This document shows, piece by piece, positions 9,958 through 61,283 of a stretch of 64,000 bases of DNA (position 1 is its first letter; each line of letters starts with the position of its first letter). The notes under the pieces are model-generated. The model was not told the origin of the DNA and made no database searches. It saw nothing but the letters and a program-made list of their open reading frames with translations. The stretch spans positions 83,927 through 147,926 of the forward strand of contig JAUSEW010000002.1 in the NCBI GenBank assembly GCA_030651475.1, read 5' to 3'. Source of the DNA: Candidatus Levyibacteriota bacterium (GTDB taxonomy: Bacteria; Patescibacteriota; Microgenomatia; Levybacterales; UBA12049). Both the position numbers and the translations under genes were made by a program.

Positions 9958-10006
9958 AGCGCTATTGGTGATTAATGTTGGTTTTGTGATATAATCCTAC
10001 TTAAAT

Positions 10007-10201: not shown

Positions 10202-10209
10202 TCAATTCC

Positions 10210-11205: not shown

Positions 11206-11232
11206 TTCTAAAGAAGTTTATATTGATTGTTT

Positions 11233-12162: not shown

Positions 12163-12163
12163 T

Positions 12164-12799
12164 TTATAGAATTTTATTTTCGATCAAATAATTTTTGACA
12201 ATTTCAAAAAACTGCTTATGTCCTTCGGAAGTCATATGTACTCCGTCTGCCAATAGTTTCGTATAATCTTTTTTGATAAATTCTTGATAAATCTCTATAA
12301 AATGAACTTTATTTTTATTGCTTACCTTTTTCATAATCTTGTTAAACTCGGCAACATATTTATCTTTATAAGATCTTCCAGGTGACCAAGGTATTGGATC
12401 AACTCGTGTGTCAACAGGCATGGAACCGATAACTATAATTTTTTTTGAATATTTTTTGGCAAGCAGTATTAATTGAGTAAGATTTGCTTCAAATTGCCTG
12501 GGGCTACGTTCTGGATTGCTGATTTTTTGATTAAAAATAGTGTCGTTTATTCCCGTCTGAAACAAAAATATTGTTTCTTCGTTGTTGTCAATTCTAGCCT
12601 TTGTTTCTTGTTCGAATCTTTTCAGTACCTCATCGGTTTTGTCGCCTGAAACACCAAGATTATAAACAAGGTGAGAATGGGCATAGTTAGAGGTGATTAT
12701 TTTTTCATCCAAAAATTTTCTAAGCCGCTGAACCCAACCGTCTTCAATATCCCAAGCGCCATAAGTTGTACTCGTCCCAAAGACTAAAATATGCGCCAT
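12164..12799 (-). CDS. SGNH/GDSL-family hydrolase (lipase/esterase-like)
   Basis: GDS-like block ILVFGTSTTYG near the N-terminus and the catalytic DGVH (DxxH) motif near the C-terminus. Confidence 0.7.
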   Translation of the reverse strand: MAHILVFGTSTTYGAWDIEDGWVQRLRKFLDEKIITSNYAHSHLVYNLGVSGDKTDEVLKRFEQETKARIDNNEETIFLFQTGINDTIFNQKISNPERSPRQFEANLTQLILLAKKYSKKIIVIGSMPVDTRVDPIPWSPGRSYKDKYVAEFNKIMKKVSNKNKVHFIEIYQEFIKKDYTKLLADGVHMTSEGHKQFFEIVKNYLIENKIL

Positions 12800-12804
12800 A
12801 ATAT

Positions 12805-15261: not shown

Positions 15262-15278
15262 TTAAAATTGCAGGATGT

Positions 15279-17312
15279 CTATATCAGAAAGGGAGCAATC
15301 AAAAGCGCTACGATATTTAATACCTTAATCATAGGATTGATTGCGGGACCGGCAGTATCTTTATATGGATCTCCGACAGTATCTCCTGTAACTGCTGCCT
15401 GGTGAGCGAAACTTCCTTTTCCTCCCAAATTTCCCTCTTCAATATATTTTTTGGTATTATCCCAGGCAGCGCCCCCGGTGGTCATAGAAATTGCCACGAA
15501 CAGTCCCGTAACAATGCTGCCAACCAAAAGTCCTCCGAGCGCTTTTGGACCAAGCAGAAATCCTACCAGAATCGGAGCAAGAACCGGAATTAGCGCGGGA
15601 ACAATCATCTGCTTTATAGCAGCTGTTGTTACTATGTCAACAGCTTTTCCGTATTGCGGTTTGGCTTTTCCTGTCATTATGCCTTTTATTTCCTTGAACT
15701 GTCGTCTTACTTCATTTACCACTGAAACAGCGGTTTTACCAACTGCCTCCATTGCCAAAGCGCCGAAGAGATATGGAAGTGCGCCTCCGATGAAAAGACC
15801 AACTACGACACTTGGATCGGAAAGAGAAAAGAAAGCTGCAGAAACGCCCTTAGCACCTCTGGCTAATTCTTGAGTATAGCTTGCGAAAAGAACCAAAGCC
15901 GCAAGTCCGGCAGATCCTATGGCATAAGCTTTGGTAATGGCTTTCGTAGTATTTCCGACCGCATCTAAAGGATCCGTAACTCGTCTTACTTTTTCATCAA
16001 GTCCTGCCATTTCCGCAATTCCTCCGGCATTATCTGTTATCGGACCGAATGCATCTATCGCTACGATAATTCCCGTTAAGGAAAGCATGCTCATTGCAGA
16101 AAGAGCTATTCCGTAAAGTCCGGCGAGATTATAGGAGACTAAAATTCCGGCAGCAATTAAAAGAATCGGAGCAAAAGTAGATTTCATAGAAACTGCCAGA
16201 CCGGCAATAACATTGGTGCCGTGTCCGGTAGTTGAGGCGTTCGCAATAGCTTTAACAGGCCCAAACTTTTTGGAGGTAAAATATTCGGTAATGATAACCA
16301 TGCCAACAGTAATTGCTATGCCAATTGCCAAAGTATAAAAAAGGTTAATTGTCGAAATCCCGTTTAATCCGTTGGGAAATGCGGAATTTGTCAGAAAATA
16401 AAAACCGACAAGCGCTACGATTATAGAAACACCAAGTCCTTGATATAAAGCACCCATTATGTTTTTTCCAACCCTCACAAACCAGCTGCCGATAATACTT
16501 GCGGCAACGGATATGGAGCCGATAAGCAAAGGATAAAATAGAACTGTCAGGTTTTCTCCGAAGGTTAATTTGCCTAAAATCATTGCGGCAACAACGGTTA
16601 CAACGTATGTTTCAAAAAGATCAGCTGCCATTCCCGCATCATCTCCGACATTATCCCCTACCAAATCCGCGATTACCCCCGGATTTCTCGGATCATCTTC
16701 AGGAATTCCCTTTTCAATTTTCCCAACCATATCTGTTCCGACATCAGCGCCTTTGGTAAATATTCCTCCGCCAAGCCTGGCGAAAACAGAAATTAAGCTC
16801 CCTCCGAAGCCTAAAGCAACTAACGGCTGAAGGCTTGATGTTCCGCTTCTGGAAAGCAAGAAATAAAAACCTCCGACTGCCAAAAGAGCCAGACCGCCAA
16901 CCATCAGTCCGGTTATTGATCCTCCCTGAAAAGCCAAAGAAAAAGCAGAAGATAAGCCTTTTTTAGCGGCTTGAGCTGTTCTGATATTGCTTCTTACGGC
17001 AATATTCATTCCCACAACTCCGGCTATGGTGGAAAAAACAGCTCCGATAGCAAAACCAACTGCGGTTATAGGATTGAAAACAAAATAAAGAACGGCAAAA
17101 ATAAAAATTCCGATAACTGCAACAACACTATATTGCTTTTTCATATAGGCAGCTGCTCCTTCTTGGATAGCATCGGCAATGTCATTCATTTTTTTGTCAC
17201 CTCGAGGTTTAGATAAAACATTAAAAGCAAGAAGAACGCTGTAGGCAACCGAGATAAAACCTGCTACAAAAGTAGTCCAAAGGGCGTGGTTTACCAAAAG
17301 AGATAAATTCAT
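15279..17312 (-). CDS. hppA: membrane-bound proton/sodium-translocating pyrophosphatase
   Basis: [17 protein letters not shown] and DNVGDNVGD motifs, 677 aa, many TM helices. Confidence 0.9.
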
Positions 17313-17357
17313 ATTAACCTTACTATTATAGAATAATCAACCCTCCTTTTCAAGATA

Positions 17358-19496
<2,139 letters not shown>

Positions 19497-47565: not shown

Positions 47566-48757
47566 TTTCTTCTTTTACCCTTTGTAAAAATTTGGAAACT
47601 TCAATTGGTCCTAGATCTTTGCCTTCCCTTGTTCTTACGGAAATCGTTTGATTTGCGATTTCTCTATCTCCTATTATACCCATAAAAGGCACTTTTTGTA
47701 AAGTAGCATTCCTGATTTTTGCCTGAAGAGTTTCCTGCCGATTATCAAGCTCCACTCGGATATTCTCCTTCTTAAATTTCTCAACCAAATCTTGCGCTCC
47801 TTTTGTTTGTCTGTCTGTAATCGGCAATATCTCGACTTGCACAGGCGAAAGCCATAATGGAAAAGCTCCCTGATAATGCTCGGTTAAAATTCCTATAAAT
47901 CTTTCAAAAGATCCGAAGATAGCCCGATGAATCATTACCGGCCTTTTTAGCGTTCCGTCTTTATCAGCATATTCAAGCTGCATTTTTTCCGGGATTTGAA
48001 AGTCGAGTTGAATTGTCGCCAATTGCCAATCTCTGTCTTGGGAGTCTTTAATGTGGATGTCTATTTTCGGGCCATAAAAAGCTCCGTCTTTTTCTTTTAT
48101 TCCGTATTTTACTTTGGCAGTTTTCAATGCCCCCTCTAGGTCTTTTTCTGCTTTTTCCCAAAGCTTTGGATCACCCATTGCCTTCTCAGGTTTAGTAGAA
48201 AAATAAAATTCAGGTTTAAACGCCAGAGATTTATAGAAATTGATTACTAATAATATTAGTTTATGAATTTCTTCTTGGATTTGGTCAGGCTGAACGTAAA
48301 GATGGGCATCGTCAATCGTAAATTGTCTGACTCTAAATAATCCTCCCAAAACGCCGGAAAGCTCGCGCCGATGAAGTATCCCGTAATCGGAAAATTTAAT
48401 TGGAAGGTCTTGATAACTCCTTGTCCTTGATGAATAAATAAGTGTTGATTCAGGGCAATTCATTGGTTTTAAAGAATAGGTTTCTTTTTCCAGTTCCAGG
48501 TTGAACATATTCTGCTCGCCAAAATGTTCCCAGTGTCCGGATTGTTTAAAAAGCGTATTCTTAACCATTACAGGTGTATTAATTTCTTTATAGCCTTCAT
48601 CTTCTGTTATTTTCCTAACATACTCCTGAAGAGTTTTGTAAATTACCCAGCCCTTAGGATGCCAAAAAACTGCTCCCGGAGCAACATCATGAAACGAAAA
48701 TAGATCAAGTTCTTTGCCAATTTGCCTGTGGTCTTTAAGTGCTGTTTTGCTGTCCAT
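47549..48757 (-). CDS. thrS: threonine--tRNA ligase, catalytic plus anticodon-binding domains only (no N-terminal TGS/editing domains)
   Basis: Class II motifs HRRELSGVLGGLFRVRQFTIDDAHLY and GSFERFIGIL. 402 aa versus ~640 aa for canonical ThrRS. Confidence 0.85.
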   Translation of the reverse strand: MDSKTALKDHRQIGKELDLFSFHDVAPGAVFWHPKGWVIYKTLQEYVRKITEDEGYKEINTPVMVKNTLFKQSGHWEHFGEQNMFNLELEKETYSLKPMNCPESTLIYSSRTRSYQDLPIKFSDYGILHRRELSGVLGGLFRVRQFTIDDAHLYVQPDQIQEEIHKLILLVINFYKSLAFKPEFYFSTKPEKAMGDPKLWEKAEKDLEGALKTAKVKYGIKEKDGAFYGPKIDIHIKDSQDRDWQLATIQLDFQIPEKMQLEYADKDGTLKRPVMIHRAIFGSFERFIGILTEHYQGAFPLWLSPVQVEILPITDRQTKGAQDLVEKFKKENIRVELDNRQETLQAKIRNATLQKVPFMGIIGDREIANQTISVRTREGKDLGPIEVSKFLQRVKEEIDKKI

Positions 48758-48783
48758 AGAAATTATTTTATCAGGTTAAGACT

Positions 48784-49386
48784 TCAAAGTCCAAGAGTAC
48801 TACTTATTGATTGCATTGCGGTTAGCGTTATTAAGATAAATTCGGGAAGAGGAATTCCCAGCTTTAACTCGCACATTTTTATCGCTTCCCTATTGGCGCC
48901 TTTGGCAAAAGAATTGTCGTTAAATTTCTCCAAAATAAATTCCGATGTGACCGTAGCAAGCATTTTACCTTGCCCCGCCGAAGTCTCTGACGAAGGTGGG
49001 TCGGGACGGACAAGCGTTGCTGCGACAATTAATCCTGTTAGCTGGTCGGCGCAATAAATACTCCAATCCATAAGACTGATTGGTTCTATTTTGGTATTTT
49101 CGAAGTTATGAGATTTTATCGCATAAGCAATATCTGGCGGAATGAGCGGCTGTTTTTCGCAGATTAACAAACCGTGAATTTCCGGATTGCCTTTGCTTAA
49201 CTGGTAATCAGCATCATGCAATAATCCCGTAATTCCCCATTTTTCTTCAGCTAAAATATCGTAAGGTTGAGGGTTCAATCTTCGGTATAGCGTTTTCATT
49301 ACCGTTTCAGCAGCCAAACAATGTTTGATAAGATTGGGATTGGTTAAATAAGTTGTTAAGATTTGATACGCTTCATCTCTAGTCAT
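48784..49386 (-). CDS. HD-domain phosphohydrolase
   Basis: H...HD motif (KHCLAAE...GLLHDADY). Confidence 0.6.
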   Translation of the reverse strand: MTRDEAYQILTTYLTNPNLIKHCLAAETVMKTLYRRLNPQPYDILAEEKWGITGLLHDADYQLSKGNPEIHGLLICEKQPLIPPDIAYAIKSHNFENTKIEPISLMDWSIYCADQLTGLIVAATLVRPDPPSSETSAGQGKMLATVTSEFILEKFNDNSFAKGANREAIKMCELKLGIPLPEFILITLTAMQSISSTLGL

Positions 49387-49468
49387 AGGATTATAATATC
49401 ATCTTTTGGATGATAAGAATGCTAAATTGTTTTACGAGATAAATTTTGTTACAATCTTAATGTAGTTT

Positions 49469-49545
49469 GGGTTCGTAGCTCAGTTGGTTAGAGCGTTACA
49501 TTGACATTGTAAAGGTCAGAGGTTCGACTCCTCTCGGGCCCACCA
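49469..49545 (+). tRNA. tRNA-Val (anticodon GAC)
   Basis: Manual cloverleaf: acceptor GGGTTCG/CGGGCCC with two G-U pairs, D arm GCTC...GAGC, anticodon stem TTACA/TGTAA with loop TTGACAT, T arm AGAGG-TTCGACT-CCTCT, discriminator A plus encoded CCA. Confidence 0.85.
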
Positions 49546-49772
49546 TTCTGGAGGCCGCCGTTTTCTGAAGTTTTTCAGCTGAGATTTTCTATATCAAACC
49601 ACAGAAATTAATTTGCGTTGATGGCGACATATCAAAATGTTTCATTTTTTAACCTTGTCAAGAGGCAATTTATATTGAAAAATCATACTAACTTGGTAAT
49701 TAAGCAATTTTGCTGATATAATGAATTTATCCAAGTCCTCGCTTTGCCTATCTCCAGCTTCCGCTGGGGGAT

Positions 49773-50528
49773 TTACTTAGCGAGGCAAATTTTTTTCCAA
49801 TAGAACACGTTTATTTTCTGATACTCAAAACTTGGCCAGTAATAGTTAGCTTTCATCTTGCATTTTTCAGCTATCCCCGGACACTTACTTAAAAGTGCTT
49901 TGCGGTAGATATTTTTATGTTTTTCCGCTCCCGTTAGAATTTTTCTATGGACATCTGCAAAGCTCAATATCAAACCGGTTAAAAAATCGGTTGCTTGAAT
50001 CATATTGGAAACGCCTGTAAATTCTCCGTTTTTTGCCCTATTTTTAGAATCCCGCCGATACACTTGTACAATAGTTGTATCTTTTTGTTTCAAAAAAGTC
50101 GGCAAAATAACATTACCTTGAAAACCTTTGTCGTCAATATTCAAGAGTTTCTTGTGTTGTTCATATTTTTCAGGACTGATCGAACGGCAAAGTTCGGCGT
50201 AGGCGGAAACGTATGCCATATCCTTTTTATCTAAACCATAATGGTTATCTTCAAAATAATCTTTGTTAGAAAAAAGGTTATCTTTAATGAGTATTTTAAA
50301 ATAAATATCTTCTGTTAAGAGAAAATAATCTATGAGTCTGACGGCGTAAAGAATCTGGGAATAATCTGTTGAGGAGTATTTCAACTCTCTTTTTTCATAT
50401 CCGCACTCTTTTCGGATTTTTTGAATATTTTGCATGTGGATGGTAGGCGTAGTAGTGAATAAGAAACCGACAGCCCAAATTTTGTCAGCGCCTGGAGTAT
50501 TTGATTCATCGCCGTATAGATATAACAT
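49773..50528 (-). CDS. DUF3800-family protein
   Basis: N-terminal LYLYGDES... matches the DUF3800 Y-x-DES start. It is the last gene of the defense-like operon. Confidence 0.55.
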   Translation of the reverse strand: MLYLYGDESNTPGADKIWAVGFLFTTTPTIHMQNIQKIRKECGYEKRELKYSSTDYSQILYAVRLIDYFLLTEDIYFKILIKDNLFSNKDYFEDNHYGLDKKDMAYVSAYAELCRSISPEKYEQHKKLLNIDDKGFQGNVILPTFLKQKDTTIVQVYRRDSKNRAKNGEFTGVSNMIQATDFLTGLILSFADVHRKILTGAEKHKNIYRKALLSKCPGIAEKCKMKANYYWPSFEYQKINVFYWKKICLAK

Positions 50529-50596
50529 CTTCTTATCTTATCACTTTCTACTGTCTCAATTTCCTCGGAGGGAGGGTCGTAGGGTTTATAAACTAC

Positions 50597-50968
50597 CTAA
50601 TCGATCTTGCCATAGAAAGCTAGACTTCCCTTTGTAATTCTTTTGTACTTCCATCCTTGTCGCTTACAATACGCTTTGGCACTTTCACCCTTTAATTTTG
50701 TAGAAACCCATAAAAGTAAAGGCAAACCTTTTGTCTCGTGCAACTCTTTTGACCCATCTTGATATTCCACTAAAAAATCCGGTAAATAATTGTGAGTAAA
50801 ACCAAGCAGCTTATAAGGAATTCTAATCCCATGTTTTTTAGTCCAGCTTTTTACTGCCGGATCTCTTTCTAGTTCCACCATATACTCTCGTTCTAATGCT
50901 GAATCGTAACTTTCCCAACCACTAGAACTTTTTCTTAACTGTGTTAATCTTCCATGCTTTGTTATCAT
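50597..50968 (-). CDS. small TnsA-N-like PD-(D/E)xK endonuclease-fold protein
   Basis: YLPDFLVEYQDGSKELHETKG fits the D...E-x-K core of TnsA_N and restriction-endonuclease-like folds. Its start overlaps the helicase stop by 4 bp. Confidence 0.45.
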   Translation of the reverse strand: MITKHGRLTQLRKSSSGWESYDSALEREYMVELERDPAVKSWTKKHGIRIPYKLLGFTHNYLPDFLVEYQDGSKELHETKGLPLLLWVSTKLKGESAKAYCKRQGWKYKRITKGSLAFYGKID

Positions 50969-53013
50969 TTACTGGTTAATATCCCTTCAATTAGTTCAGG
51001 CCTTAAGAAAATATCATGTACTTGGTCAATCATTGCCCAGAGAATTCTTAGTTGTCTTTCATCGGCTTCCTCAATTGCCTTACCAAGCAAAAACCTTTTT
51101 GTTATATGCTGTCTAATAATTTTTATTAAATATGCTTGTCTATCATCAGGATTTCTATCATATTCAAGTAAGGAAGCTATCGCAATATTATGTGTCTGTT
51201 TAATTATTTGTTTTTTTATCTCATCTAGGCTCCAATGGTCTGTATTAGTAGCCTTCGCTAAATTCCTTACATCGATTTCAGGGAGATTTTTATCCAAAGT
51301 TGTCATATCAGAATCAAGATTTAAACTTTTAATCTGGGCAACATCTTCAGATATATTCATTTTGTGCGGGTCATATTCATACTGATCAAGGTATTTTTGC
51401 CATTCATAAATTGGTTCAACAACTTCCGGTGGTTCGGGAGTCGCTGGAATTTTTGACATATCGAGTTTTTCCTCTGCCTCTCCTATTGTCTGCTCACCTT
51501 CTTCAACGGTTTCTATTGTTTCTTTCTCTGTCGGAATTTTTGCTTCATCGATGATAATGTTTGCTGGATCAAGCTGATCCGGATATTCAGTTGCTCTTAA
51601 ATTTTCCCAAAGCCATTTATGCTTTAAGATTGGGTGATCCACTACGAATAATGATTCCCATTCCTCTGTACTTTTTCCCATTCTTCGAAGTCCTCTTCCG
51701 ATTACTTGCGGGCCATAAACAGAAAACTTTTGTCCGCCAACCTCTTTATAGCTAAACTTTCTAAACAGAACCTCAACTGCAATATTTCTTACGTCCCATC
51801 CTTCCCGAAGCATTAAAACAGAAATCACAGCATCAAATTCGGGATGTGGATTTTGATTAAGAGTTTTTGCTTGATCGACTAACTCATCATTTTGTTCATT
51901 ATGAACCAATAAAGTCTTATTGACTTCGTATTTTGGGCCGATCTCCTGCAATGCCCGATCAATATTTTCTGCGTCTGCAATTGATAGAGCAATAACAAAA
52001 AGTAATGGCTTGAATCTTGGTTGACCATCCTTTCCTCTTGGCACGGCTAATCTTTGCTTTGCTAAAAGCTCTAACCCTATGGCTAATTGTTGACGCATTG
52101 GTTTAGCGCTGGTGATATATCTTCTGGCTGGTATTTTTCTTTTTTCAATTTCTTCCCAAGGCATCTCTTCTTCCGAAATAGTTTTACCAGTTATTAAATC
52201 CTCATATGTTAATTTCACTTTCCTAACGTCAGGATGAAAAACTACAATCCTTTTAATGATTTTATCCTTCATTGCTTCGGCAATTCCGTACACAAAGATC
52301 ATCTCGCTATCTGGATGCAAACCATCCAGTCTATCCGGTGTAGCAGTTGTATCCAAGCGGAAAAATCTTTTTGGTTTCAATTTATTTATTAAATCATTAT
52401 AGATTTCTGCTTTTGTATTATGAGCTTCGTCATTAAAGATAACTATGGAATCAATATTTTCCATCAAAACTTTCCAGTTATCTCTTTTTTCGTAGATCTG
52501 CTGTATGTTTCCAATTAAAATATTATTTGCCCTAACGCCAGCAGAGCTTGCTCCTGCTTCCATAACATGATGGGAAAGTCTATCTTTAAGAGGTAAATAC
52601 GAGTTGAAGAAGAACGGAAAAATATTGTAAATATAAATATAGGAGTTCGGATCAAACTCATCTACTAACCTTGATCTGACTATTGTATTTGGCGTGAGAA
52701 CTAAAAATTTATTTTGATCATGCACAATCATCATGTAAGCAATCATTGCGCCAATGACTGTGGTCTTGCCTCCACCTGTAACTATATTTGTTAGAACATC
52801 TTTAAGCCCCAATATTTCAAAAGAATAAACGCATCTCTCAATCGCTTCAATTTGCACTTTCTTCCATTGTTTTTCGTTCCAAAGTTCAAGATTTGGTTTA
52901 AAGTGTTGAGAATTAAGGTGTTTCAAAAAAGCAATACCAGCATCAGGAATCCCTTCATAGGTTTTTCTCCACTGCTTAAAATTCGCCTCATGTGGCTTAA
53001 AAAAATACTGCAT
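50965..53013 (-). CDS. Type III restriction Res-like SF2 helicase (ResIII domain, DEAH box), apparently without its own nuclease domain
   Basis: Motif I TGGGKTT, motif II IIFNDEAHNT, motif III TATPDR, motif VI QVIGRGLRR. No PD-(D/E)xK motif is seen in the C-terminal ~200 aa. Confidence 0.75.
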   Translation of the reverse strand: MQYFFKPHEANFKQWRKTYEGIPDAGIAFLKHLNSQHFKPNLELWNEKQWKKVQIEAIERCVYSFEILGLKDVLTNIVTGGGKTTVIGAMIAYMMIVHDQNKFLVLTPNTIVRSRLVDEFDPNSYIYIYNIFPFFFNSYLPLKDRLSHHVMEAGASSAGVRANNILIGNIQQIYEKRDNWKVLMENIDSIVIFNDEAHNTKAEIYNDLINKLKPKRFFRLDTTATPDRLDGLHPDSEMIFVYGIAEAMKDKIIKRIVVFHPDVRKVKLTYEDLITGKTISEEEMPWEEIEKRKIPARRYITSAKPMRQQLAIGLELLAKQRLAVPRGKDGQPRFKPLLFVIALSIADAENIDRALQEIGPKYEVNKTLLVHNEQNDELVDQAKTLNQNPHPEFDAVISVLMLREGWDVRNIAVEVLFRKFSYKEVGGQKFSVYGPQVIGRGLRRMGKSTEEWESLFVVDHPILKHKWLWENLRATEYPDQLDPANIIIDEAKIPTEKETIETVEEGEQTIGEAEEKLDMSKIPATPEPPEVVEPIYEWQKYLDQYEYDPHKMNISEDVAQIKSLNLDSDMTTLDKNLPEIDVRNLAKATNTDHWSLDEIKKQIIKQTHNIAIASLLEYDRNPDDRQAYLIKIIRQHITKRFLLGKAIEEADERQLRILWAMIDQVHDIFLRPELIEGILTSK

Positions 53014-53065
53014 ATTTACTCAATATTAAGATAGGGTCTAATTTAATTATTACTATTGATATTTC

Positions 53066-54796
53066 TTAAACTTCATAGATCGTATTTATTTTATCTATTA
53101 TTGTGTCATAAACATACTCGAAGTTAGCGTGTGTTTTTTTAGATAACTTTTTTAGTATTGCCTTTACTTTTTTTGAAAAATAAAGAGTGGCAATAGTCTT
53201 TTCGAATGACGTATTATTTGGAATAGCTAGCTCGCTTCTAATTAATCTAATATCCTGCCCTTCAAAAAGATCCTGAAGTATTGTTTTTTTTCTTGATTTA
53301 GAATTAAGTGGTAACAACAGAAATTTTTTTCCCTCTTCATCGCCAAAAAACTTCATTGAATTCTCGAATTCCCTCTGACCTTCAACATCATTATCCCACA
53401 TAGCCAAGTATTTCAATCTCCATCCTATTGAAATTGATATAAAGTACGAAATACTTTCAGCATTTACTGATGGTAAAAATCCTAAATTTAATGTTTTTGG
53501 TTTAAATAATTCAAAACAATAGAAATCATATATTCCCTCAACTATGCATATTGATTCAAAATTAAAGTCTGTTATAAACGGTTTGATTTTGAGAGCATCA
53601 ATAATTGGTTGAACAGCCAGTCTTTTCTCTTTACTATTGTCTTTATATTCCAAAAGAGAAAGAATGCTTATTGATCCATTACTGCTTTTTTGTGCAACTC
53701 TCACGGAATTAAGCGGTATCTGCGATGGATCAAGTAAATAATGAGAATGTGTGCAGTAAATAACGACATTATTGCTAGACAAGTACGAAAGCTTCTCGCA
53801 TAATTTAGATTGAGCACTGGAATGCAGATACGACCCTGGCTCATCAAGTAAATATATAGTATCCTTATCTTCCATACTTCTAACTTTTGGGTTAAATTCA
53901 AGTTTCATAACGAAATTAAAAAACCAGTAAAATCCTTTACTTCGATCACGAATCCCAAAATATCTCTCTTTCCCCTCTATAGTTTCCTTTACAAGAAGCT
54001 TTAAGAATGGTCTCTCCTCTTTAAGGCTATAGTCAATTTGTACATCCAATCTTGCTCCTTTTTCTAAAGTAAATTTTTCCCACTCTTTTGCTAAAGTTTG
54101 ATTTAATACCTTACATGCATCTCCCAAGATACTTTGTCTTGTTAACTCTTCAATCTCCTTTAATTTAAATACTGAATAGTCATTATTTGTTTTTCTGAAT
54201 AATTGTTCAATAATTTCTAACCATCCCTTAGCTTGATTATTCTCACCTACTATTTCCATTTCTTCTTGGACAGTATCCCTGAAGTCATCGAAATATAAAA
54301 TATGCGGAGTTTTCCGAAGTATTGTATCTATCAAAAGCGTATTAATATTTGAGTAGTTTTCAAGTTCTTGGTTCTTAATCGAGTACTGTTTATTTATAAG
54401 ATCTCTCTTGATAAATAAATAGCATGTTTTCTGATCAACCCTAGAAACAAACTCTTTAAATTCTGTTAGTTCTCGTACAGCGTCTTCAGATAATCCTGAT
54501 ACATTTCCTAGTTGTTCGTGTATACTTAGGCATTCTTCTTTGCTTATCTCTATTTTTGCTGTTACTGAAGGCACTCCCTGATCGGTAGTTTTGTATAAAT
54601 TCCGGACATTTATTAACTGTCGCCCATCGTTTAGGCTATCGTTCGAAAGATCAAAAGCAAAAATTGCCCATAAAATACTAGTTTTCCCGCTTTCATTTAT
54701 GCCAATTATAGGAAGCAAGCTCCTTTTAGAGATATCTACCTCTAAATTTCCTGAAATAGCTTTATAATCAGATATTGTAAAGCTTAAATACCTCAT
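53066..54796 (-). CDS. OLD-family nuclease: ABC-type ATPase (AAA_15/21) fused to a C-terminal Toprim domain (GajA-like architecture)
   Basis: Walker A GINESGKTS, Walker B IYLLDEPGSYLHS, H-loop CTHSH, then Toprim E (CIVEGIYD) and DxD (AMWDNDVEG). 576 aa. Start overlaps the methyltransferase stop by 4 bp. Confidence 0.7.
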   Translation of the reverse strand: MRYLSFTISDYKAISGNLEVDISKRSLLPIIGINESGKTSILWAIFAFDLSNDSLNDGRQLINVRNLYKTTDQGVPSVTAKIEISKEECLSIHEQLGNVSGLSEDAVRELTEFKEFVSRVDQKTCYLFIKRDLINKQYSIKNQELENYSNINTLLIDTILRKTPHILYFDDFRDTVQEEMEIVGENNQAKGWLEIIEQLFRKTNNDYSVFKLKEIEELTRQSILGDACKVLNQTLAKEWEKFTLEKGARLDVQIDYSLKEERPFLKLLVKETIEGKERYFGIRDRSKGFYWFFNFVMKLEFNPKVRSMEDKDTIYLLDEPGSYLHSSAQSKLCEKLSYLSSNNVVIYCTHSHYLLDPSQIPLNSVRVAQKSSNGSISILSLLEYKDNSKEKRLAVQPIIDALKIKPFITDFNFESICIVEGIYDFYCFELFKPKTLNLGFLPSVNAESISYFISISIGWRLKYLAMWDNDVEGQREFENSMKFFGDEEGKKFLLLPLNSKSRKKTILQDLFEGQDIRLIRSELAIPNNTSFEKTIATLYFSKKVKAILKKLSKKTHANFEYVYDTIIDKINTIYEV

Positions 54797-56799
54797 TTTG
54801 TTACCTCCATTTTTTTACTTAAAATTGTCTCTCCTGCTAAATTATCTTGTACTTTGCACGCAACAACATACTCTCTCTCTTTATCAAATTTATGCTTCGC
54901 TTTTAACACTGCCTCAAAAATCTCTCCACGCTTTTTACCTGCCCCGTTGCGCAGCTTTACGGGGTCCTTTTTCTTTTCTCGAGATAAAACATAATCTTTA
55001 TCTGCAGAAAAATGTCCTTCCTGATAATCAAAATCCCATTGAGCATTTACAAGCCAGCCATCTTCATTTGTTGAAATTGCATCCACTGCTTCAAACTCAT
55101 ATTCCAAAAGCCCAATTTTTTTAATCTTAATATCTCCAATTACAGGAGGTTTGGAAAAACGAAGGAATAATTCCGCATCTTCAACATCGGGCATTCTTTG
55201 TAAAATCCTTTGCCTAAAGGCTTTGGAATCTAACGGAATTGCTTCCAATTCTATAGGCAGATTATATTTTTGTGAATAATTTTGCAGAGCTTTAACATAA
55301 GCCAATACTTGTCTGGAAAATCTCCAAGCAACAATTTTTGCACGGATCATTTGATTTACTTGAACTTTGGCTTTTATTTCATCGAAAAACGTTTTAATAT
55401 CCTTTACGTCAATTGATTCATTTGGATTGGGATGCCCAATATAAATTGGTTCTTGTTGCGCAGGCGGTCTATAGCCATGAGTAACTCCTGCTCCGGTATT
55501 TCGGCTCGCTCCATAAGCAGTTAAAACAAAATTTATAAATTCTTCTTGATTTAAGTTTTTAAACTTCTCAACTGGGTAAACTCCCAAATAGTAAACTTCA
55601 ATATTGGGAACTTTCTCAAAAGTGCCTTCCGTCTGTAACCCCAACTGAAAGGCTTTATTGTCAGTTGAAATATTACTTTTAACCCCGCTCATTTCCTCCC
55701 CAACTTTTACCAACCTATCTAAAGTAACGGAAACAGCCACTCTTGAAGAATCACAGCCAATAAATTTTCTTTTCAATTTCTGAGCTACAGCTAATGTTGT
55801 TCCACCTCCCACAAAAAAATCTGCTACTACCTCGCCTTCGTTTGAAGAGGCTTTTATAATTCTTTCTAAGAGAACTTCTGGTTTCTGAGTCGGGTAACCG
55901 ATTCTTTCTTTGTGAACTGCTGGAATAGTAGGGATATCCCAGACATCCTCGGGATACTTTCCTTCATCTAAATAATATTTATAGTATTTACCCATTTTAG
56001 AACTCCATTTTTTTCTAAATCTCCTTCCTTCTTCATCTTTATAGTGAAAGTTTTCCTCTGCAGAAGATTCCTTAAATGGGACTTTTACTCTTTCTATTTC
56101 AAATGTATATTTTTTGGATTTGGAGTAAAGAAAAATAATATCATGCTTCTTGCTAAAATCCTTTTTTGATTTTGCTCCCATGTGATACCACCAAATAACT
56201 TCATTTACAAAATTTTCATATCCAAAAATCTTATCCATCTCTGTTTTAATATAATGACTAGCATGCCAGTCGCAATGGACGTAAATACTGCCTGTATTTT
56301 TTAAAACTCTTCGCATTTCCCAAAGCCTAGCGTTAAGCCAAATCAAATAACTCGTTATTCCACCTTCCCAAATATCCTCAAAAGTTCTTACTTCGTTACT
56401 GTCTCCCCAAATAACGTTGTAATTTCTGCCAGAGAAAAAGGGAGGATCAATATAAATTAAGTCTATTGAATTGCTTGGAAGAGTACGTAAGACCTCTAAA
56501 TTATCCCCAAGATAGAGTTTATTAGCCGGAGATTGTGGGTCATTAAATATTACCGTATCTCCATGATTTTTAGGATGAAGTGCAGGAATATTAATATAAG
56601 GAAATACCCTATCAAATGCTTTATGGTCATCATAACCAAGAGGCGGATTTGTCGGGTCTGGTAAATTATGTAAGCGTTTCCTAAGTTTTGAAGAAACAGA
56701 AATAACACTCTTTTGATCTGGGCGTTCCTGCCCTTCGGATTCTTTCTGTATTTTCTCTAATTCCTCTTTGTCAATTACTGATTTATTCTGTGTGTGCAT
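54793..56799 (-). CDS. beta-class DNA N6-adenine/N4-cytosine methyltransferase (Type III Mod-like) with an extra C-terminal domain
   Basis: Motif IV IYIDPPFFSG comes before motif I VVADFFVGGGTTLAVA, which is the permuted order typical of Type III Mod and N4/N6 methyltransferases. A ~300-aa C-terminal extension follows. Confidence 0.8.
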   Translation of the reverse strand: MHTQNKSVIDKEELEKIQKESEGQERPDQKSVISVSSKLRKRLHNLPDPTNPPLGYDDHKAFDRVFPYINIPALHPKNHGDTVIFNDPQSPANKLYLGDNLEVLRTLPSNSIDLIYIDPPFFSGRNYNVIWGDSNEVRTFEDIWEGGITSYLIWLNARLWEMRRVLKNTGSIYVHCDWHASHYIKTEMDKIFGYENFVNEVIWWYHMGAKSKKDFSKKHDIIFLYSKSKKYTFEIERVKVPFKESSAEENFHYKDEEGRRFRKKWSSKMGKYYKYYLDEGKYPEDVWDIPTIPAVHKERIGYPTQKPEVLLERIIKASSNEGEVVADFFVGGGTTLAVAQKLKRKFIGCDSSRVAVSVTLDRLVKVGEEMSGVKSNISTDNKAFQLGLQTEGTFEKVPNIEVYYLGVYPVEKFKNLNQEEFINFVLTAYGASRNTGAGVTHGYRPPAQQEPIYIGHPNPNESIDVKDIKTFFDEIKAKVQVNQMIRAKIVAWRFSRQVLAYVKALQNYSQKYNLPIELEAIPLDSKAFRQRILQRMPDVEDAELFLRFSKPPVIGDIKIKKIGLLEYEFEAVDAISTNEDGWLVNAQWDFDYQEGHFSADKDYVLSREKKKDPVKLRNGAGKKRGEIFEAVLKAKHKFDKEREYVVACKVQDNLAGETILSKKMEVTK

Positions 56800-57017
56800 G
56801 TAGACTAATTTTACCAGAAAACCAAGATTATAAAAAGAAGAGAATTCCTTTTCGTGTGGAGGAAATTTATAATGGATAGGGAAAATTAAACTTTAAAGAA
56901 TTGAGCAAATCTCAATTTATAAAGATTCTCCAGGAAATCTGTCCCGGCATATCCTGCTAACAAAGATATTTTCCCCCGCATAATCTTGCTTTTCGCCTTT
57001 TCACTACTATTCGTAGA

Positions 57018-57039
57018 CGGCTCCCTCCAGAGGCGGGCA
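57018..57039. repeat. left 22-bp inverted repeat (gctccctccagaggcgggcagg) bracketing the Bro-N gene. The gggcaggcaaa motif recurs at 57033-57043 and 57059-57069.
   Basis: 21 of 22 positions match the reverse complement of 57950-57971. Confidence 0.8.
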
Positions 57040-57095
57040 GGCAAAGAGCGATTTGAGCGGGGCAGGCAAATCATTGTTGGCAATAATTCCGGACA

Positions 57096-57917
57096 TTATG
57101 AAAGTTGCTTAGCCCTTTGTTTCTTAGGTAAGTAATTCTTTTTGGAAACTATTGACCTTCCAAGACGTTTTTCAAGCTTTCTTCTTGCACCGCCGGCAAT
57201 ATCACCACCTGCTTTGGCATCACTTTTAAGTTTAGGCATTCCTTTTGAATCTTCGTTGCGATGAATTTCAGTAGTAGCCCTTTCCCCAAGCATGGTAAAA
57301 ATTAACTCAAAGTCATCCATGTGATCTCTTAAGTTTTGCCGCTTTAATCCCTTTAACTTTTTGTACTGACTTGGAGTTACACCAAACATTGCTTTGGAGA
57401 TTTCAGCCGTGAGAATTTCATAATCCCTCTGTATCCTTGCTCCTCTTTTTTGCCATTCATCAGTTAATTCTTCGCGGATAGCAATACCTCTCATCCGTTT
57501 CTCTATCCAATCATCAGAATAACCTTTTGCTTTATACAAGGCTCTTGTTCTTTTGGTTGCCAGTTCAGGATCTTCTATTTCTTGGATTCTTTCATATCCA
57601 ACTCTTGCCAGCCATCTTTTGAAAGGCTCAGCTTTGGGAGAAGGGATAGACTGGATGATACGAAAAACTCCTTCGGTATTGGCACAGCTTATTTTTTGTT
57701 TTCCTCCTTTTGTTTCAATTAAAAGGGGGGTGGCAATTTGCCTCCACCCCTTGGAGATCTCGGGGTCACGTCGGCGCATATCTTTGATATACCCTTCGGG
57801 TTGAACAGAATCGGTAAGTGCTGCAACTACATCAACAATAACAAACCACCATTCATGGTGATGGATAGTCTTACGGATTTGCTTATTTCTAAAAATAGCA
57901 ATTTTGGTATCAATCAT
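57096..57917 (-). CDS. Bro-N (KilA-N-like) domain protein, phage antirepressor / DinD-like
   Basis: IDTKIAIFRNKQIRKTIHHHEWWFVIVDVVAALTDS matches the Bro-N consensus (..IR....G..WF...DVA..L). The start is set at the internal Met (MIDTK) because the upstream 48 codons include the right inverted repeat and a hairpin. Confidence 0.55.
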   Translation of the reverse strand: MIDTKIAIFRNKQIRKTIHHHEWWFVIVDVVAALTDSVQPEGYIKDMRRRDPEISKGWRQIATPLLIETKGGKQKISCANTEGVFRIIQSIPSPKAEPFKRWLARVGYERIQEIEDPELATKRTRALYKAKGYSDDWIEKRMRGIAIREELTDEWQKRGARIQRDYEILTAEISKAMFGVTPSQYKKLKGLKRQNLRDHMDDFELIFTMLGERATTEIHRNEDSKGMPKLKSDAKAGGDIAGGARRKLEKRLGRSIVSKKNYLPKKQRAKQLS

Positions 57918-57949
57918 GAATTTCAGTATAGCATGTCTGAAGAAAGGAT

Positions 57950-57971
57950 GGCCAAAGTGCCTGCCCGTCTC
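57950..57971. repeat. right 22-bp inverted repeat (cctgcccgtctctggagggagc)
   Basis: Reverse complement of 57018-57039 with one mismatch. Confidence 0.8.
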
Positions 57972-57997
57972 TGGAGGGAGCAGAAGCGACCGACTGT

Positions 57998-58019
57998 GCC
58001 CTGAGCGAAGTCGAAGGGC
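57998..58019. repeat. hairpin with the conserved loop GAGCGAAGTCGA, copy 1 (gccct-gagcgaagtcga-agggc)
   Basis: Member of a 4-copy family. Other copies at 60361-60396, 60816-60837 and 60948-60977. Confidence 0.7.
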
Positions 58020-58223
58020 TACCTTTAAAAGCAGTTCGGACTTTTTCATAAACGTCCACAAAATTCACCCTGTTATTTTAGGCATTCATCATGTCCACAA
58101 ATTCTTGCTGCTCTGTTTGCTTCAGCAATTCTTTTATCTGTATTAAAACCACAACAGTGATAATATGCGGAGCTATTAGTTGATTTTTTGCAGGTTCTTC
58201 TCTTTTGAAATTTTCTCTTTCCA

Positions 58224-58247
58224 TAAAAAAACCCGCCTATTGGCGGG
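58224..58247 (-). terminator. Rho-independent terminator (minus strand CCCGCC-aata-GGCGGG followed by T7)
   Basis: GC stem and T-run read from the sequence, downstream of the 58469-59704 gene. Confidence 0.6.
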
Positions 58248-58468
58248 AATTTGCAATCTGTTTTTAACTAACAGAAATTCTCCGCCCTTTACGGGTTAGT
58301 AAGGAGAGTCTCGTTAGCTAAAAATTTTACTTGATTCATCTTTAAATTATTTTATCAATTAATTTTTATCTTTGTCAATAACTAAATTAAAACTTTTAAT
58401 TTATAGGAATTTTTACTTGATGAGTGGGAAACGAACGAGATTGGGTAGGGCAATCTCTATTGATTATC

Positions 58469-59704
58469 TTATGTTTTCTTCATAGCTTTTAACGCGTCAA
58501 GTTTTATTCGCCTAGCAACTTGTTTTTCTCGCTTAGTTTTATTTTTTTCGTTTCGCCATGCTTCGAGCATCTTTCTAAGTGTCGTTGTCAAAGCAAGGTC
58601 ATCAGAGAACTCTTTGATAGCCCCTTCTACTAATTGAACGTCTTTATTATCATAAATAATGAAAGCGTTTCCTTTTATTTGGTGGATTAAAAACTTACGT
58701 TTCAAATCACCTTCAAGCATGCGTAATGTTCTGTTGCCCAGGAAAGAATCCACAAGAATAGGTTCGTTTGTAGTTAATATGAATTCCAATTCTTTTAGGT
58801 AAAACTCTTTGCTTACGGGCAATTCTCCTCTATCGTTAGTCATAGATCCAAGTATTACGGCATATGAATAAGCAGTATGGAACCCATTTGGACTAGAGGG
58901 ATTTTGATTTTTTTCTTCTTCATGAATTATTTCATGCATTTTGTTTGCCGCTTTACGTTTCCACGATTCGTCAACGGAGGTATTGTCGTATAGGTCGCTT
59001 AACGGTTTGTATTTATCAATGTCACGAATGTCAAAACCAAACAACATTCTTAACACAGACTCAATATATTCAGAAGATATGGGATGATTATGAATAGTAA
59101 AATGCGCGAATAGTTCCTCCGCTTGTTTAGTATCTAAGGCAGTAAGTAAATGAGGGATAAGCATATTATAGGTCTTTAATGACGTAGCGTAACGTCCGAT
59201 CAGATTAATTATGGCCATACGCTCTTCTTCCGTTGGTGTTCCTTTTTCTTCTATTCCTACTTCTATTGTTTTTACCGCTTTTTCCGTTTCTTTGACGTAG
59301 TCTGGAAGTTTAGAAGCAACAAAATTTGCTTGTTCTTTGCTTAGTTTTCCTAACAGTCTCTTTACCCGACCCTCTTTATTTTCATCAGCATCTCTTCCAT
59401 ATGAAATGTACGAAATAAATAAACCGAGATTGCCGTGGCTGTTTTCCGCATCAACGCTTACTAAGAAAGGGAGTTTTGTAATATCGGGTGCAAAAAGCAC
59501 TTGTAATGCTCTTTGTTGATATTGCGGATCAACATCTTCTCTTAAAAGAGCAACCATATCGTCTTTGGTTCTTTTGACACCCATAAACTGATCCCAAGCG
59601 GCTTCTTGAGGACCTTCGGGGAAAAACCTATGAATAGTTTCTTCTAAGAAATTATCAACGCGTGGATCTAGGGGCGGAGTTCTTTCTTGTTTTGATCCTG
59701 CCAT
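58469..59704 (-). CDS. hypothetical protein
   Basis: 411-aa ORF with no recognised motif. Lies within the accessory island. Confidence 0.3.
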   Translation of the reverse strand: MAGSKQERTPPLDPRVDNFLEETIHRFFPEGPQEAAWDQFMGVKRTKDDMVALLREDVDPQYQQRALQVLFAPDITKLPFLVSVDAENSHGNLGLFISYISYGRDADENKEGRVKRLLGKLSKEQANFVASKLPDYVKETEKAVKTIEVGIEEKGTPTEEERMAIINLIGRYATSLKTYNMLIPHLLTALDTKQAEELFAHFTIHNHPISSEYIESVLRMLFGFDIRDIDKYKPLSDLYDNTSVDESWKRKAANKMHEIIHEEEKNQNPSSPNGFHTAYSYAVILGSMTNDRGELPVSKEFYLKELEFILTTNEPILVDSFLGNRTLRMLEGDLKRKFLIHQIKGNAFIIYDNKDVQLVEGAIKEFSDDLALTTTLRKMLEAWRNEKNKTKREKQVARRIKLDALKAMKKT

Positions 59705-59707: not shown

Positions 59708-60346
59708 TTATCCGACTTGCGTGGCGACGACGCGTTCGTTAGAAAGACCAAAGGTTGTGCCGTGTTTCTTGAACATTGACCAATATTCTTTTTTAGCTTT
59801 CTTGCTTTTGAACATAGATAGCCAAGCTTTGGAATCTTCAACTTTAGCTCGGGCCTGGCGAATAGTAACAAGCATCCATTCAAAAAACGATTGATGATAT
59901 TTTCCGGGTTTTGCAACTCTTTGCTCTACTGTAATTTCTCTAAATTCCGTTCTTAATTCTTCAGAGCTCTCAACAAGCTTTTTTAACTCAACAATTATTT
60001 GCTGAATTTGAGCTTTTGTTTCTTGGTTTTCTTGGGAAACAACCCGTTCTTGAGCATGAACTATCTCTGCCGTATAATTAATCCCCGGTGTAATATCTTT
60101 TTTCTTTTCTTGCTCTTCCTTAAGTTTTTTTAAATTAAGTTCTTTCCCTTCCGCAAGATCTCCGCTTAGATTTTGGGCTTCCTCTTTTGCGTATTTATTA
60201 ATTCCCAGAAACTGTTCCCAGATATCTCCCAGCGCATCTTGAGTATTTTTAGCTATGGATTGGGGAACAGCTGACAGCGTATCTCGTACAGCTTCTACTG
60301 GATTTCGATCTACATATTGTCTGGCTTTGGATTTCGTTCTTTTCAT
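59708..60346 (-). CDS. hypothetical protein (coiled-coil rich)
   Basis: 212-aa ORF located 3 bp from the upstream gene. Confidence 0.3.
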   Translation of the reverse strand: MKRTKSKARQYVDRNPVEAVRDTLSAVPQSIAKNTQDALGDIWEQFLGINKYAKEEAQNLSGDLAEGKELNLKKLKEEQEKKKDITPGINYTAEIVHAQERVVSQENQETKAQIQQIIVELKKLVESSEELRTEFREITVEQRVAKPGKYHQSFFEWMLVTIRQARAKVEDSKAWLSMFKSKKAKKEYWSMFKKHGTTFGLSNERVVATQVG

Positions 60347-60360: not shown

Positions 60361-60396
60361 CAGTATGATTCTGAGCGAAGTCGAAGAATCATACTG
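60361..60396. repeat. hairpin with conserved loop, copy 2: 11-bp perfect stem cagtatgattc / gaatcatactg around ctgagcgaagtcgaa
   Basis: Read from the sequence. Lies between tig and the downstream gene. Confidence 0.8.
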
Positions 60397-60404: not shown

Positions 60405-61283
60405 TCACAAGTCTCTCAAAAAATCAAGGGTTTTCTGTTGTCTTAAGATACTGGTCAGAAGATACCGATTGGCTTCTAAGTTCTTACGCTCTTGATCGTC
60501 CTTCGCTTTATTGATAGCTTCATCCACTTCTTTCTGATCAACAGTGATATTCTCTTTATCGGCGATTTGCTGAAGAGCGAACTCAAATTTGATATCGTTT
60601 TCCGCTTTTTGCTCATAGTCTTTCCTAACAGATTCAGGCGTTTTGCCCGTGGATGCCAGATACTGATCTAAGTTTAACCCGAGCTTTTTTACCTCATCGA
60701 GAAGCTGGGAAAGAGATCTATCTACTTCCTGATCAATAAGAATTTTTGGGATCTGACAATTAACACTATCTAAAAGAGCCTTAATGGTCTCTTCGGATTT
60801 TGGTTTTTCTGGCTTGCCCTGAGCAACGTCGAAGGGTTCTTTTCCCGGAACTATGATTTTGCTCTTGGCATTTATTTTCTTAACGTTTTCTTTATATGAG
60901 CCTAGTTCAATGTTTGGAGCTTCGCAGGTAAGTGCCGTAAACGTCCAACCCTTCGACTCACTTTGTTCGCTCAGGGTCGACAAGTCTTCGAACTTGTCGA
61001 CATGAATTTTGGGATTAATGATTGGTTTTAATTTATTTTCCGAAACTGCGTCAACATAAAATTTAGGTAAAAGTTTTTTTAAGACTTCTTCTTGAATAGC
61101 TGCCTTATCGAGCTTTTCTTCAACGAGTTTTCTTGGAGCCTTGCCTTTGCGAAACCCGGGCAAAGTAGTATTTTGAATCATTCCCTCTACGACTTCGTTT
61201 TTGGTTTTTACAACCTCATAGGAAGGAATAGTTATTGTCAGTTTTATTGTTCCGTCTTTTTCTTTAGTTATTGCAGATATCAT
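60405..61283 (-). CDS. tig: trigger factor, short form (N-terminal ribosome-binding plus C-terminal domain, no PPIase domain)
   Basis: GFRKGKAP ribosome-binding signature. 292 aa versus ~430 aa canonical. Conserved-loop hairpin copies 3 and 4 lie inside the coding sequence. Confidence 0.6.
   Translation of the reverse strand: MISAITKEKDGTIKLTITIPSYEVVKTKNEVVEGMIQNTTLPGFRKGKAPRKLVEEKLDKAAIQEEVLKKLLPKFYVDAVSENKLKPIINPKIHVDKFEDLSTLSEQSESKGWTFTALTCEAPNIELGSYKENVKKINAKSKIIVPGKEPFDVAQGKPEKPKSEETIKALLDSVNCQIPKILIDQEVDRSLSQLLDEVKKLGLNLDQYLASTGKTPESVRKDYEQKAENDIKFEFALQQIADKENITVDQKEVDEAINKAKDDQERKNLEANRYLLTSILRQQKTLDFLRDL
60816..60837. repeat. hairpin with conserved loop, copy 3 (gccct-gagcaacgtcga-agggtt), inside the tig coding sequence
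   Basis: Read from the sequence. One substitution in the loop relative to copies 1 and 2. Confidence 0.6.
60948..61001. repeat. conserved-loop hairpin copy 4 (reverse orientation, loop split by a 9-nt insert) abutting a perfect 10-bp-stem palindrome gtcgacaagt-cttcga-acttgtcgac, inside the tig coding sequence
   Basis: Read from the sequence. Encodes ...VDKFEDLSTLSEQSESKGW... on the minus strand. Confidence 0.6.

Follow-up and report, generated by a model that had tools for sequence, protein, structure and literature searches.

An OLD-like ATPase gene in the variable slot of a Type III-like restriction-modification locus from a Levyibacteriota bacterium

A minus-strand operon was analyzed in a 64,000-nucleotide stretch of DNA (hereafter “the window”) from Candidatus Levyibacteriota bacterium (GenBank assembly GCA_030651475.1, contig JAUSEW010000002.1, positions 83,927 to 147,926). 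A first-pass annotation, made from the letters of the sequence, had placed five minus-strand open reading frames (ORFs) beside a tRNA-Val gene and had suggested that they might work together in defense. All five ORFs were recovered with exactly the same ends, and the tRNA gene was confirmed. On comparative sequence evidence, the conserved unit is three genes, encoding a methyltransferase (MT), a helicase (HEL), and a small nuclease (NUC), that together constitute a Type III-like restriction-modification (R-M) system with its Res split in two. The gene for an OLD-like ATPase is nested between the MT and HEL genes, in a position whose contents vary among related loci. The features of this core are as follows.

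54793-56799, minus strand: mod, the MT gene and first core gene (668 aa; N6_N4_Mtase, 9e-52)
53066-54796, minus strand: gene for the OLD-like ATPase, the embedded cargo (576 aa; AAA_15/AAA_21)
53021-54792, no strand assigned: foreign cassette (ATPase ORF plus AT-rich spacer), delimited by breakpoints in DNA homology
53014-53065: AT-rich spacer between the ATPase and HEL genes (52 nt)
50965-53013, minus strand: HEL, the res large subunit and second core gene (682 aa; ResIII, 6e-20)
50597-50968, minus strand: NUC, the res small subunit and third core gene (123 aa; Tn7_TnsA-like_N, 1e-9)

Searches with profile hidden Markov models (HMMs) upheld the domain assignments of the first-pass annotation for the MT, the ATPase, the helicase, and the TnsA-like nuclease; the match of the fifth ORF to DUF3800 was weak and below threshold. 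The MT/ATPase and HEL/NUC junctions are ATGA overlaps, as had been reported, and the latter couples the translation of NUC to that of HEL. The third reported overlap, at the ATPase/HEL junction, does not exist; the AT-rich spacer stands there instead. No convincing internal terminator was found within the operon.

The conserved trio and its variable slot

In the MT, DPPF precedes FxGxG, and the enzyme is therefore of the beta class. Its best PADLOC model was MTase_II (8e-70), followed by MTase_III (2e-52). The catalytic core is compact (ca. residues 93-372) and is succeeded by a C-terminal extension of ca. 300 aa that has no Pfam match and is likely a target-recognition or docking region. Residues 99-355 could be aligned contiguously with the compact, 249-319-aa methyltransferases RsrI, CcrM, and MboIIA (PDB sequences); the EcoP15I Mod aligned with residues 92-232 only. 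Because the core aligns throughout with the compact beta-class enzymes but with the EcoP15I Mod only in part, the unit was named Type III-like, not Type III. Like Type III systems, it has a single operon for mod and res and an N6/N4 Mod of the beta class; mod lies upstream on the same strand, and the order is conserved. The SF2 (superfamily 2) helicase and C-terminal PD-(D/E)xK domains that reside in a single Type III Res are found here on two proteins.

HEL is an SF2 DEAH helicase of the ResIII type without a nuclease domain. NUC is a TnsA-like PD-(D/E)xK protein in which the E..PD..ExK motifs occur at ALEREY, LPDF, and HETKG (RE_endonuc, 4.5e-3). Both proteins matched a single 970-aa NCBIfam model of the BPTD_3080-family restriction endonucleases (NF046055), HEL at positions 529-629 and NUC at positions 845-922, and NUC also aligned with the C-terminal E...PD...ExK motifs of fused 831-839-aa Res proteins (loci L029 and L030, described below). 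Since one model covers both proteins and NUC aligns with the fused Res, HEL and NUC were taken as a conserved split Res, with no broken gene. A frameshifted or pseudogenized Res was rejected: HEL has more than 2,800 homologs, those listed were nearly all ca. 680 aa long, and a separate nuclease gene of ca. 122 aa was present in each locus examined.

Related loci were collected from five entries with gene calls and 42 from a metagenome scan. The order MT-[slot]-HEL-NUC was kept in all 43 of those with enough sequence, and NUC orthologs stood directly after HEL in every locus that reached that far. Identities to the window's proteins were 59-80% for MT, 66-93% for HEL, and 68-90% for NUC. The division of Res into two polypeptides is, to judge from these comparisons, ancient and conserved. 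The first-pass view that Mod, helicase, and separate nuclease amount to a Type III-like R-M system is thus supported.

The gap between the MT stop and the HEL start could be measured in 38 related loci and ranged from 5 to 1949 bp. It was empty in four of them (L033, L041, L055, and L056) and was filled in the other 34 by same-strand ORFs that fell into about 20 BLASTP clusters. Proteins of the DUF3800 family were the commonest occupants (13 loci, six clusters, Pfam E-values of 1e-7 to 3e-15); others were AbiTii, a YaaC-like protein, a UvrD/GajB-like helicase, a PIG-L deacetylase, a DUF4258/DUF2283 pair, small membrane proteins, and unannotated proteins. The 660-bp slots of L042 and L062, for example, hold a membrane-protein gene. 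An ATPase of the window's type was present in none of the 38 loci. Even the loci whose helicases are 93% identical to that of the window carry different cargo: an unknown gene plus DUF3800 in L032, and a 285-aa protein without a family assignment in L037.

The ends of the inserted segment were located by blastn comparison of the window with L032, L037, and L033. Homology stopped at the MT stop codon (54793-54814) and resumed at 53013-53020, which is 0-7 nt before the HEL ATG. From these breakpoints, the foreign segment was placed at ca. 53021-54792, comprising the ATPase ORF and the spacer. On the far side of the trio, DNA homology with the related R-M loci ended at 50557-50575, i.e. 20-40 nt past the NUC stop.

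Some further observations concern these loci. The slot of L043 (3547-5484) holds a lone UvrD-type helicase that matched the PADLOC GajB models (8e-32), with no GajA adjacent. The stretch that immediately follows the nuclease gene varies as well, and its contents in L033 and L034 look defense-related. L033 has DUF5655, an unknown gene, a different AAA_15/AAA_21 ATPase of 541 aa, and TerB_N at 10463-14823, and L034 has a short RVT_1 protein and PDDEXK_1 at 11415-12677.

The OLD-like ATPase and its family

The slot protein of the window comprises an N-terminal ABC ATPase, a C-terminal Toprim domain, and a helical tail. Residues G32..G37-K38-T39, D318-E319, and H350 were invariant among 53 homologs, supplying the Walker A, Walker B, and H-loop elements expected of an OLD-family ATPase. 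In Foldseek searches, this half matched TsOLD, GajA, PtuA, and SMC heads with E-values of 1e-13 to 1e-11. The Toprim domain was resolved by structure prediction only; it was not detected by sequence alone with Pfam (E<=10), with phmmer against the PDB, or with a domain profile against PDB sequences. In the predicted structure, this half matched the Toprim domains of OLD, GajA, and retron Ec67, and its invariant E420/D424 and D468xD470 provide the Glu after beta1 and the DxD after beta3 that characterize OLD proteins. TsOLD (6P74) was the best structural match to the full-length protein. The top PADLOC match was AriA (8e-15), which covers the generic ATPase region only, and the C-terminal 200 aa had no Pfam match at E<=10 and no PADLOC match at E<=0.1. 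The first-pass assignment of the 576-aa protein to the OLD-type ABC/Toprim family is borne out by the invariant Glu and DxD and by the fold matches; the protein is a genuine but divergent member. Because the catalytic residues are invariant in more than 50 homologs across many phyla, the ATPase and Toprim activities are probably under selection. The GC content of the gene is 31.8%, compared with 35.5-36.6% for MT, HEL, and NUC.

The family counts more than 1,100 proteins, distributed over many phyla; the window's own ATPase is 100% identical to an NCBI protein of Candidatus Levybacteria, and the genome was assembled from a metagenome. No conserved partner of the ATPase was found in 25 genome loci, and neighbor families were shared within one Saccharibacteria lineage only. 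Its closest relatives are in L029 and L030 (81% and 73% identity), where the order is Mod, ATPase, Res. These Mod proteins are ca. 29% identical to the window's MT, and their fused 831-839-aa Res proteins have no BLASTP match to HEL or NUC; DNA similarity between the window and these loci is confined to 54798-53057. The Saccharibacteria homologs stand in the series Fic, Mod, ATPase, RhuM, Res (ResIII plus RE_endonuc). A 48%-identical homolog in a Pacebacteria genome is flanked by an HsdR-like gene on one side and a fused N6_Mtase/Methylase_S gene on the other. Other homologs are found outside of R-M operons: beside Fic and PEP-utilizer genes, beside housekeeping genes, in a recombinase-bearing element after an HTH_17 gene, and, in the case of a distant homolog, on a spirochaete plasmid. 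In annotated plasmids, no relative exceeded 31% identity. As the contexts differ and the partners are unrelated, it was concluded that R-M systems from no fewer than four unrelated families have each acquired the ATPase gene and that it has co-evolved with none of these.

Two groups of homologs have additional features. Those in L031 (814-11611) and in L001 and L002 (ca. 8400-18800), at ca. 62% identity, are preceded by a gene for a protein of ca. 350 aa that was called Fic in L031 and was not annotated in L001 or L002; past the homolog in L031, PPDK_N/PEP-utilizer proteins alternate with His_Phos_1 phosphatases. In L011 (1456-11265, Crocinitomicaceae), a Res of 962 aa, a Mod of 623 aa, a 151-aa gene product, an SMC/AAA_23-like ATPase of 823 aa, and an OLD-like homolog are encoded in that order; the two ABC ATPases that come after this Type III-like R-M system are different from each other.

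Neighboring genes and flanks

Three further features lie around the core.

49469-49545, plus strand: tRNA-Val(GAC) (ARAGORN; Rfam tRNA, 70 bits), forming the boundary of the island 3' of the operon
49773-50528, minus strand: DUF3800-like gene (251 aa; Pfam DUF3800, 18.5 bits, sub-threshold)
57096-58061, minus strand: upstream neighbor encoding a Bro-N domain protein (Bro-N, 2e-12; PADLOC PDC-S13, 4e-109)

The flanks of the island are housekeeping genes: PheST, L20, IF3, and an aminoacyl-tRNA synthetase on one side, and trigger factor on the other. For this reason, the change in gene content beside tRNA-Val, to which the first-pass annotation had drawn attention, was accepted as real. Neither an integrase nor an att-like repeat was found at the island, and the 3' end of the tRNA-Val is not repeated elsewhere in the window; the reading of a tRNA-integrated island was rejected on these two counts.

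The DUF3800-like gene is separated from NUC by 68 nt on the same strand. Its score of 18.5 bits falls short of the 21-bit Pfam cutoff for PF12686, and its PADLOC match was PDC-M04A (1.5e-6). The family has 87 proteins at 58-95% identity, almost none of them annotated by Pfam, and PF12686 is carried by its most distant member only. DUF3800 proteins are characterized by two motifs, DE (N-terminal) and QxxD (C-terminal) (PMC7736814). Both are present here, in GDES (residues 6-9) and in QATD; in the alignment of the family, Q178 and D181 do not vary, and they are the same pair as Q203/D206, which are invariant in the bona fide DUF3800 proteins of the slots. An hhalign comparison of the family with the slot proteins aligned 28 N-terminal columns only (79% probability), and an ad hoc HMM built from the slot proteins did not recover the window's protein convincingly. 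All three relatives with long contigs (L079, L081, and L082/L083) sit in differing housekeeping contexts, none near an R-M system. The gene is probably an independent, small, mobile stand-alone gene outside of the conserved unit. A search for the DUF3800-associated RNA motifs of Weinberg et al. (2017) gave no Rfam match in 48500-59000.

In the Bro-N protein, the PDC-S13 match spans residues 51-318, and translation probably begins close to residue 49 of the listed ORF. No homolog of the gene was present in any related locus. Going by sequence and distribution, the DUF3800-like and Bro-N genes are best regarded as separate neighbors in the same small island.

Between the Bro-N gene and a 411-aa ORF (58469-59704, minus strand), which has no Pfam or NCBIfam match and adjoins the gene for a DUF5660 protein (59708-60346), lies a candidate small RNA (58225-58378, minus strand). 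It has a near-consensus promoter (TTGACA-18-TAAAAT, 11/12), a predicted transcript of ca. 115 nt with a long hairpin (minimum free energy of -38.4 kcal/mol, z = -5.5 versus shuffles), and a clean intrinsic terminator at 58247-58232, directly past which an ORF of ca. 47 aa begins; its Rfam matches were all sub-threshold. There are three copies of a 16-nt repeat, CTGAGCGAAGTCGAAG, two of them exact and one at 88%, at 58001-58016, 60371-60386, and 60819-60834; they fall within the 5' portion of the Bro-N ORF, the intergenic region between the DUF5660 and trigger-factor genes, and the interior of the trigger-factor gene.

Interpretation and comparison with known systems

The explanation preferred here, with good though not complete confidence, is an R-M system with an exchangeable slot that currently holds an autonomous OLD-like defense gene: two layers of defense, not a five-gene machine. 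Two layers were proposed because the locus fits the pattern of embedded defense genes (same-strand nesting, cargo that varies among hosts, and cargo that is also found elsewhere) and because PrrC, PARIS, and P2 Old offer precedents. In the first layer, the beta-class MT would mark host DNA, and HEL and NUC would jointly act as Res, with ATP-driven movement on unmethylated DNA followed by cleavage. Unrelated accessory genes are swapped in and out of the slot between mod and HEL. In the second layer, the OLD-like gene, co-transcribed with and translationally coupled to mod, would supply a sensor, the ABC ATPase, and an effector, the Toprim nuclease, and would most likely act alone as a back-up. 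By analogy to P2 Old, PARIS, and Gabija, the Toprim nuclease would be set free by some phage cue, perhaps an anti-restriction protein or else DNA of aberrant structure; cleavage of tRNA or DNA would then arrest the infected cell. Co-transcription with the R-M genes would give the ATPase shared regulation and shared horizontal transfer. Of the two options raised in the first-pass annotation, it is therefore the combination of restriction with an abortive-infection-type effector that is supported.

Several points weigh against this explanation. The assignment to a Type III-like class is incomplete, as the methyltransferase core resembles compact Type II beta-class enzymes. A recombinase or repeats that might serve cassette exchange were looked for, and none was found. 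The comparison draws on ca. 45 helicase loci and ca. 35 ATPase loci that are partly redundant, several being near-identical metagenome contigs. Four independent R-M families have the ATPase gene at precisely the boundary of their modification and restriction genes, and its start is coupled to the stop of mod in both the window and L029; this could reflect a functional dependence on R-M and not just a tolerance of insertions. Finally, the comparisons show the gene content, the folds and motifs, the co-conservation of the trio, the variability of the slot, the limits of the cassette, and the independence of the ATPase from any one partner; what the enzymes do, what triggers the ATPase, and an abortive end of infection are inferred.

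The main rival would be a dedicated R-M guardian, in which the OLD-like protein is tied functionally to its host R-M system, on the model of PrrC and EcoprrI. A helicase-type restriction complex, or the DNA products of that complex, would keep it inactive or be monitored by it, and it would fire its Toprim domain when a phage blocks restriction. That the family recurs at the same position, with modification genes on one side and restriction genes on the other, in four unrelated R-M families that contain a helicase points in this direction, as do the ATGA or other tight coupling to the upstream gene, the embedding of all three members of the clade with 73-100% identity, the precedents of PrrC and PARIS, and the rank of AriA as the top PADLOC match. 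However, the partners are unrelated across hosts while the ATPases are 73-81% identical, a pattern that would not be expected of a specific protein-protein interface. Many members of the family lie far from any R-M system, the same slot accepts about 20 unrelated cargoes, and the C-terminal domain of the ATPase has no DUF4435/AriB signal. Such dedicated wiring is accordingly held to be unlikely.

A broader proposal joins two ideas: that proteins of the OLD-like family serve as generalist guardians of restriction enzymes of the helicase type, and that MT-HEL-NUC is an unrecognized, highly productive host for embedding in bacteria of the Candidate Phyla Radiation (CPR). The protein would respond to a signal that Type I and Type III-like systems share, e.g. 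stalled translocating complexes or phage-protected restriction-derived DNA ends, upon which a Toprim tRNase/DNase would be fired. This would explain why at least four unrelated R-M families have captured the same cassette, each between its modification and its restriction genes, and DUF3800 would be the main partner of the MT-helicase-nuclease family. The joint proposal is offered tentatively, and its truth is doubted more than believed.

A passive hitch-hiker, i.e. a selfish or addiction-type ATPase that makes no contribution to phage defense in a slot that merely tolerates insertions, is improbable. It would accord with the extreme heterogeneity of the cargo, which includes a toxin-antitoxin pair and a PIG-L deacetylase, with a family that has no known defense phenotype, and with the selfish benefit of embedding discussed by Payne et al. 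(bioRxiv 10.1101/2024.01.29.577857). Against it stand the ATPase and Toprim catalytic residues, invariant in more than 50 homologs from many phyla, the validation as defenses of related ABC-ATPase/Toprim proteins (including the embedded HEC-04), and the enrichment of slot cargo for abortive-infection (Abi) and defense-type families.

Least credible is a single obligate machine of four or five genes that marks self by methylation and has the ATPase as a structural subunit: the genes are compact and co-directional with two ATGA overlaps, no convincing internal terminator, and catalytic motifs intact in every gene, but the comparative data largely refute it, as the ATPase is found in 0 of 38 related loci (four of them without any insert), the cassette breakpoints coincide with the ORF ends, a 52-nt spacer occupies the ATPase/HEL junction, and all three informative relatives of the DUF3800-like gene have housekeeping contexts. 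The same absence from 38 loci speaks against the other first-pass option, one new five-gene system with methylation as self-marking, and the co-function it supposed also fails with respect to ATPases of 73-81% identity that sit between Mod and Res proteins unrelated to the window's and to the DUF3800-like gene. The annotation had proposed that its idea would fall if the neighbors proved never to be co-conserved; this is largely so for the ATPase, whereas the MT-HEL-NUC trio is co-conserved.

Under the preferred explanation of an R-M system with an exchangeable slot, a known pattern of embedding would gain a new host, a Type III-like, split-Res R-M system in CPR bacteria, and a new cargo, a divergent OLD-family protein. 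The use of embedding as a principle of defense-gene discovery would thereby be extended to Type III-like systems and to CPR/Patescibacteria. To our knowledge, almost none of the immunity of these bacteria has been studied experimentally. The gene families borne in the slot, about 20 in number, with DUF3800 the most frequent and several lacking annotation, are defense candidates. The OLD-like family, with its more than 1,100 proteins, is missed by current Pfam Toprim models and has been repeatedly captured by R-M operons; it would be a good test case for embedded ABC-ATPase/Toprim genes as restriction back-ups.

Two known systems were considered and rejected as identities for the locus. Hma is defined by the m5C methyltransferase HmaB together with HmaA and HmaC (PMC8565338); the present MT is of the N6/N4 type, and no Hma model was among the five matches of HEL or the 25 listed for the MT and the ATPase. 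As to Gabija, each half of the ATPase protein has GajA among its best structural matches, and the first-pass description “Gabija GajA-like” holds at the level of fold only. The adjacent helicase is SF2 ResIII, no UvrD/GajB helicase is adjacent by Pfam or PADLOC, and the PADLOC similarity to GajA is marginal.

The R-M core resembles the Type III system EcoP15I in having mod upstream of res, an SF2 ResIII helicase, and a beta-class MT, and the PD-(D/E)xK domain of NUC is related to the C-terminal domain of Type III Res. It differs from EcoP15I and from the single-chain BPTD_3080 family in that Res is split into a helicase of ca. 680 aa and a nuclease of ca. 122 aa. In place of the central target-recognition domain of canonical Type III enzymes, the MT appears to have a compact Type II-like core plus a C-terminal extension, and the slot parts mod from res.

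The ATPase is similar to the Class 1 OLD proteins (P2 Old; TsOLD, 6P74), which are single chains of ca. 520-590 aa that combine an ABC ATPase with a Toprim domain bearing Glu and DxD and which have no obligate partner gene. Identities in structural alignments are nevertheless only 10-15%, and the Pfam model OLD-like_TOPRIM misses the window protein. Class 1 OLDs have been described as lone genes away from other defenses, whereas the window's family is found repeatedly in R-M operons. The best PADLOC matches, to AriA, Old, and GajA, are weak.

PrrC and PARIS back up restriction as R-M guardians (PMC12707154), and PARIS and, according to a 2026 preprint, P2 Old cleave tRNA once the ATPase sensor has been triggered. 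Like PrrC (in the Type Ic system EcoprrI) and PARIS, the present protein is an ABC-ATPase effector genetically tied to restriction, and a similar back-up logic is plausible. It has neither the anticodon-nuclease domain of PrrC nor the DUF4435 signature of the PARIS protein AriB; a merged PARIS was rejected because the C-terminal domain of the ATPase gave no DUF4435/AriB signal.

The closest parallel in organization is the embedding described by Payne et al. (2024; bioRxiv 10.1101/2024.01.29.577857), who found defense genes nested in Hma, BREX, DISARM, and Type I R-M systems. In their survey, ABC ATPases were the commonest cargo and about 97% of cargo was co-oriented with the host system; HEC-04, an embedded single-chain ABC ATPase-TOPRIM protein, was experimentally validated as a defense. 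The ATPase of the window belongs to a distinct family from HEC-04, which was not represented among the 25 PADLOC matches listed. The first-pass statement that the architecture could not be matched to a described system is therefore out of date, as the nesting of ABC ATPases has been described (10.1101/2024.01.29.577857), though not in Type III-like hosts: the combination of a Type III-like MT, a helicase, and a small nuclease lies outside of that survey. In other respects the two agree. The cargo is on the same strand, is nested in a methylation-based system, and varies between related hosts; ABC ATPases are prominent as cargo, and the cargo is found in non-embedded form as well. The PADLOC families of the window's neighbors, PDC-M04A and PDC-S13, are named in the same PDC series as the candidates of Payne et al.

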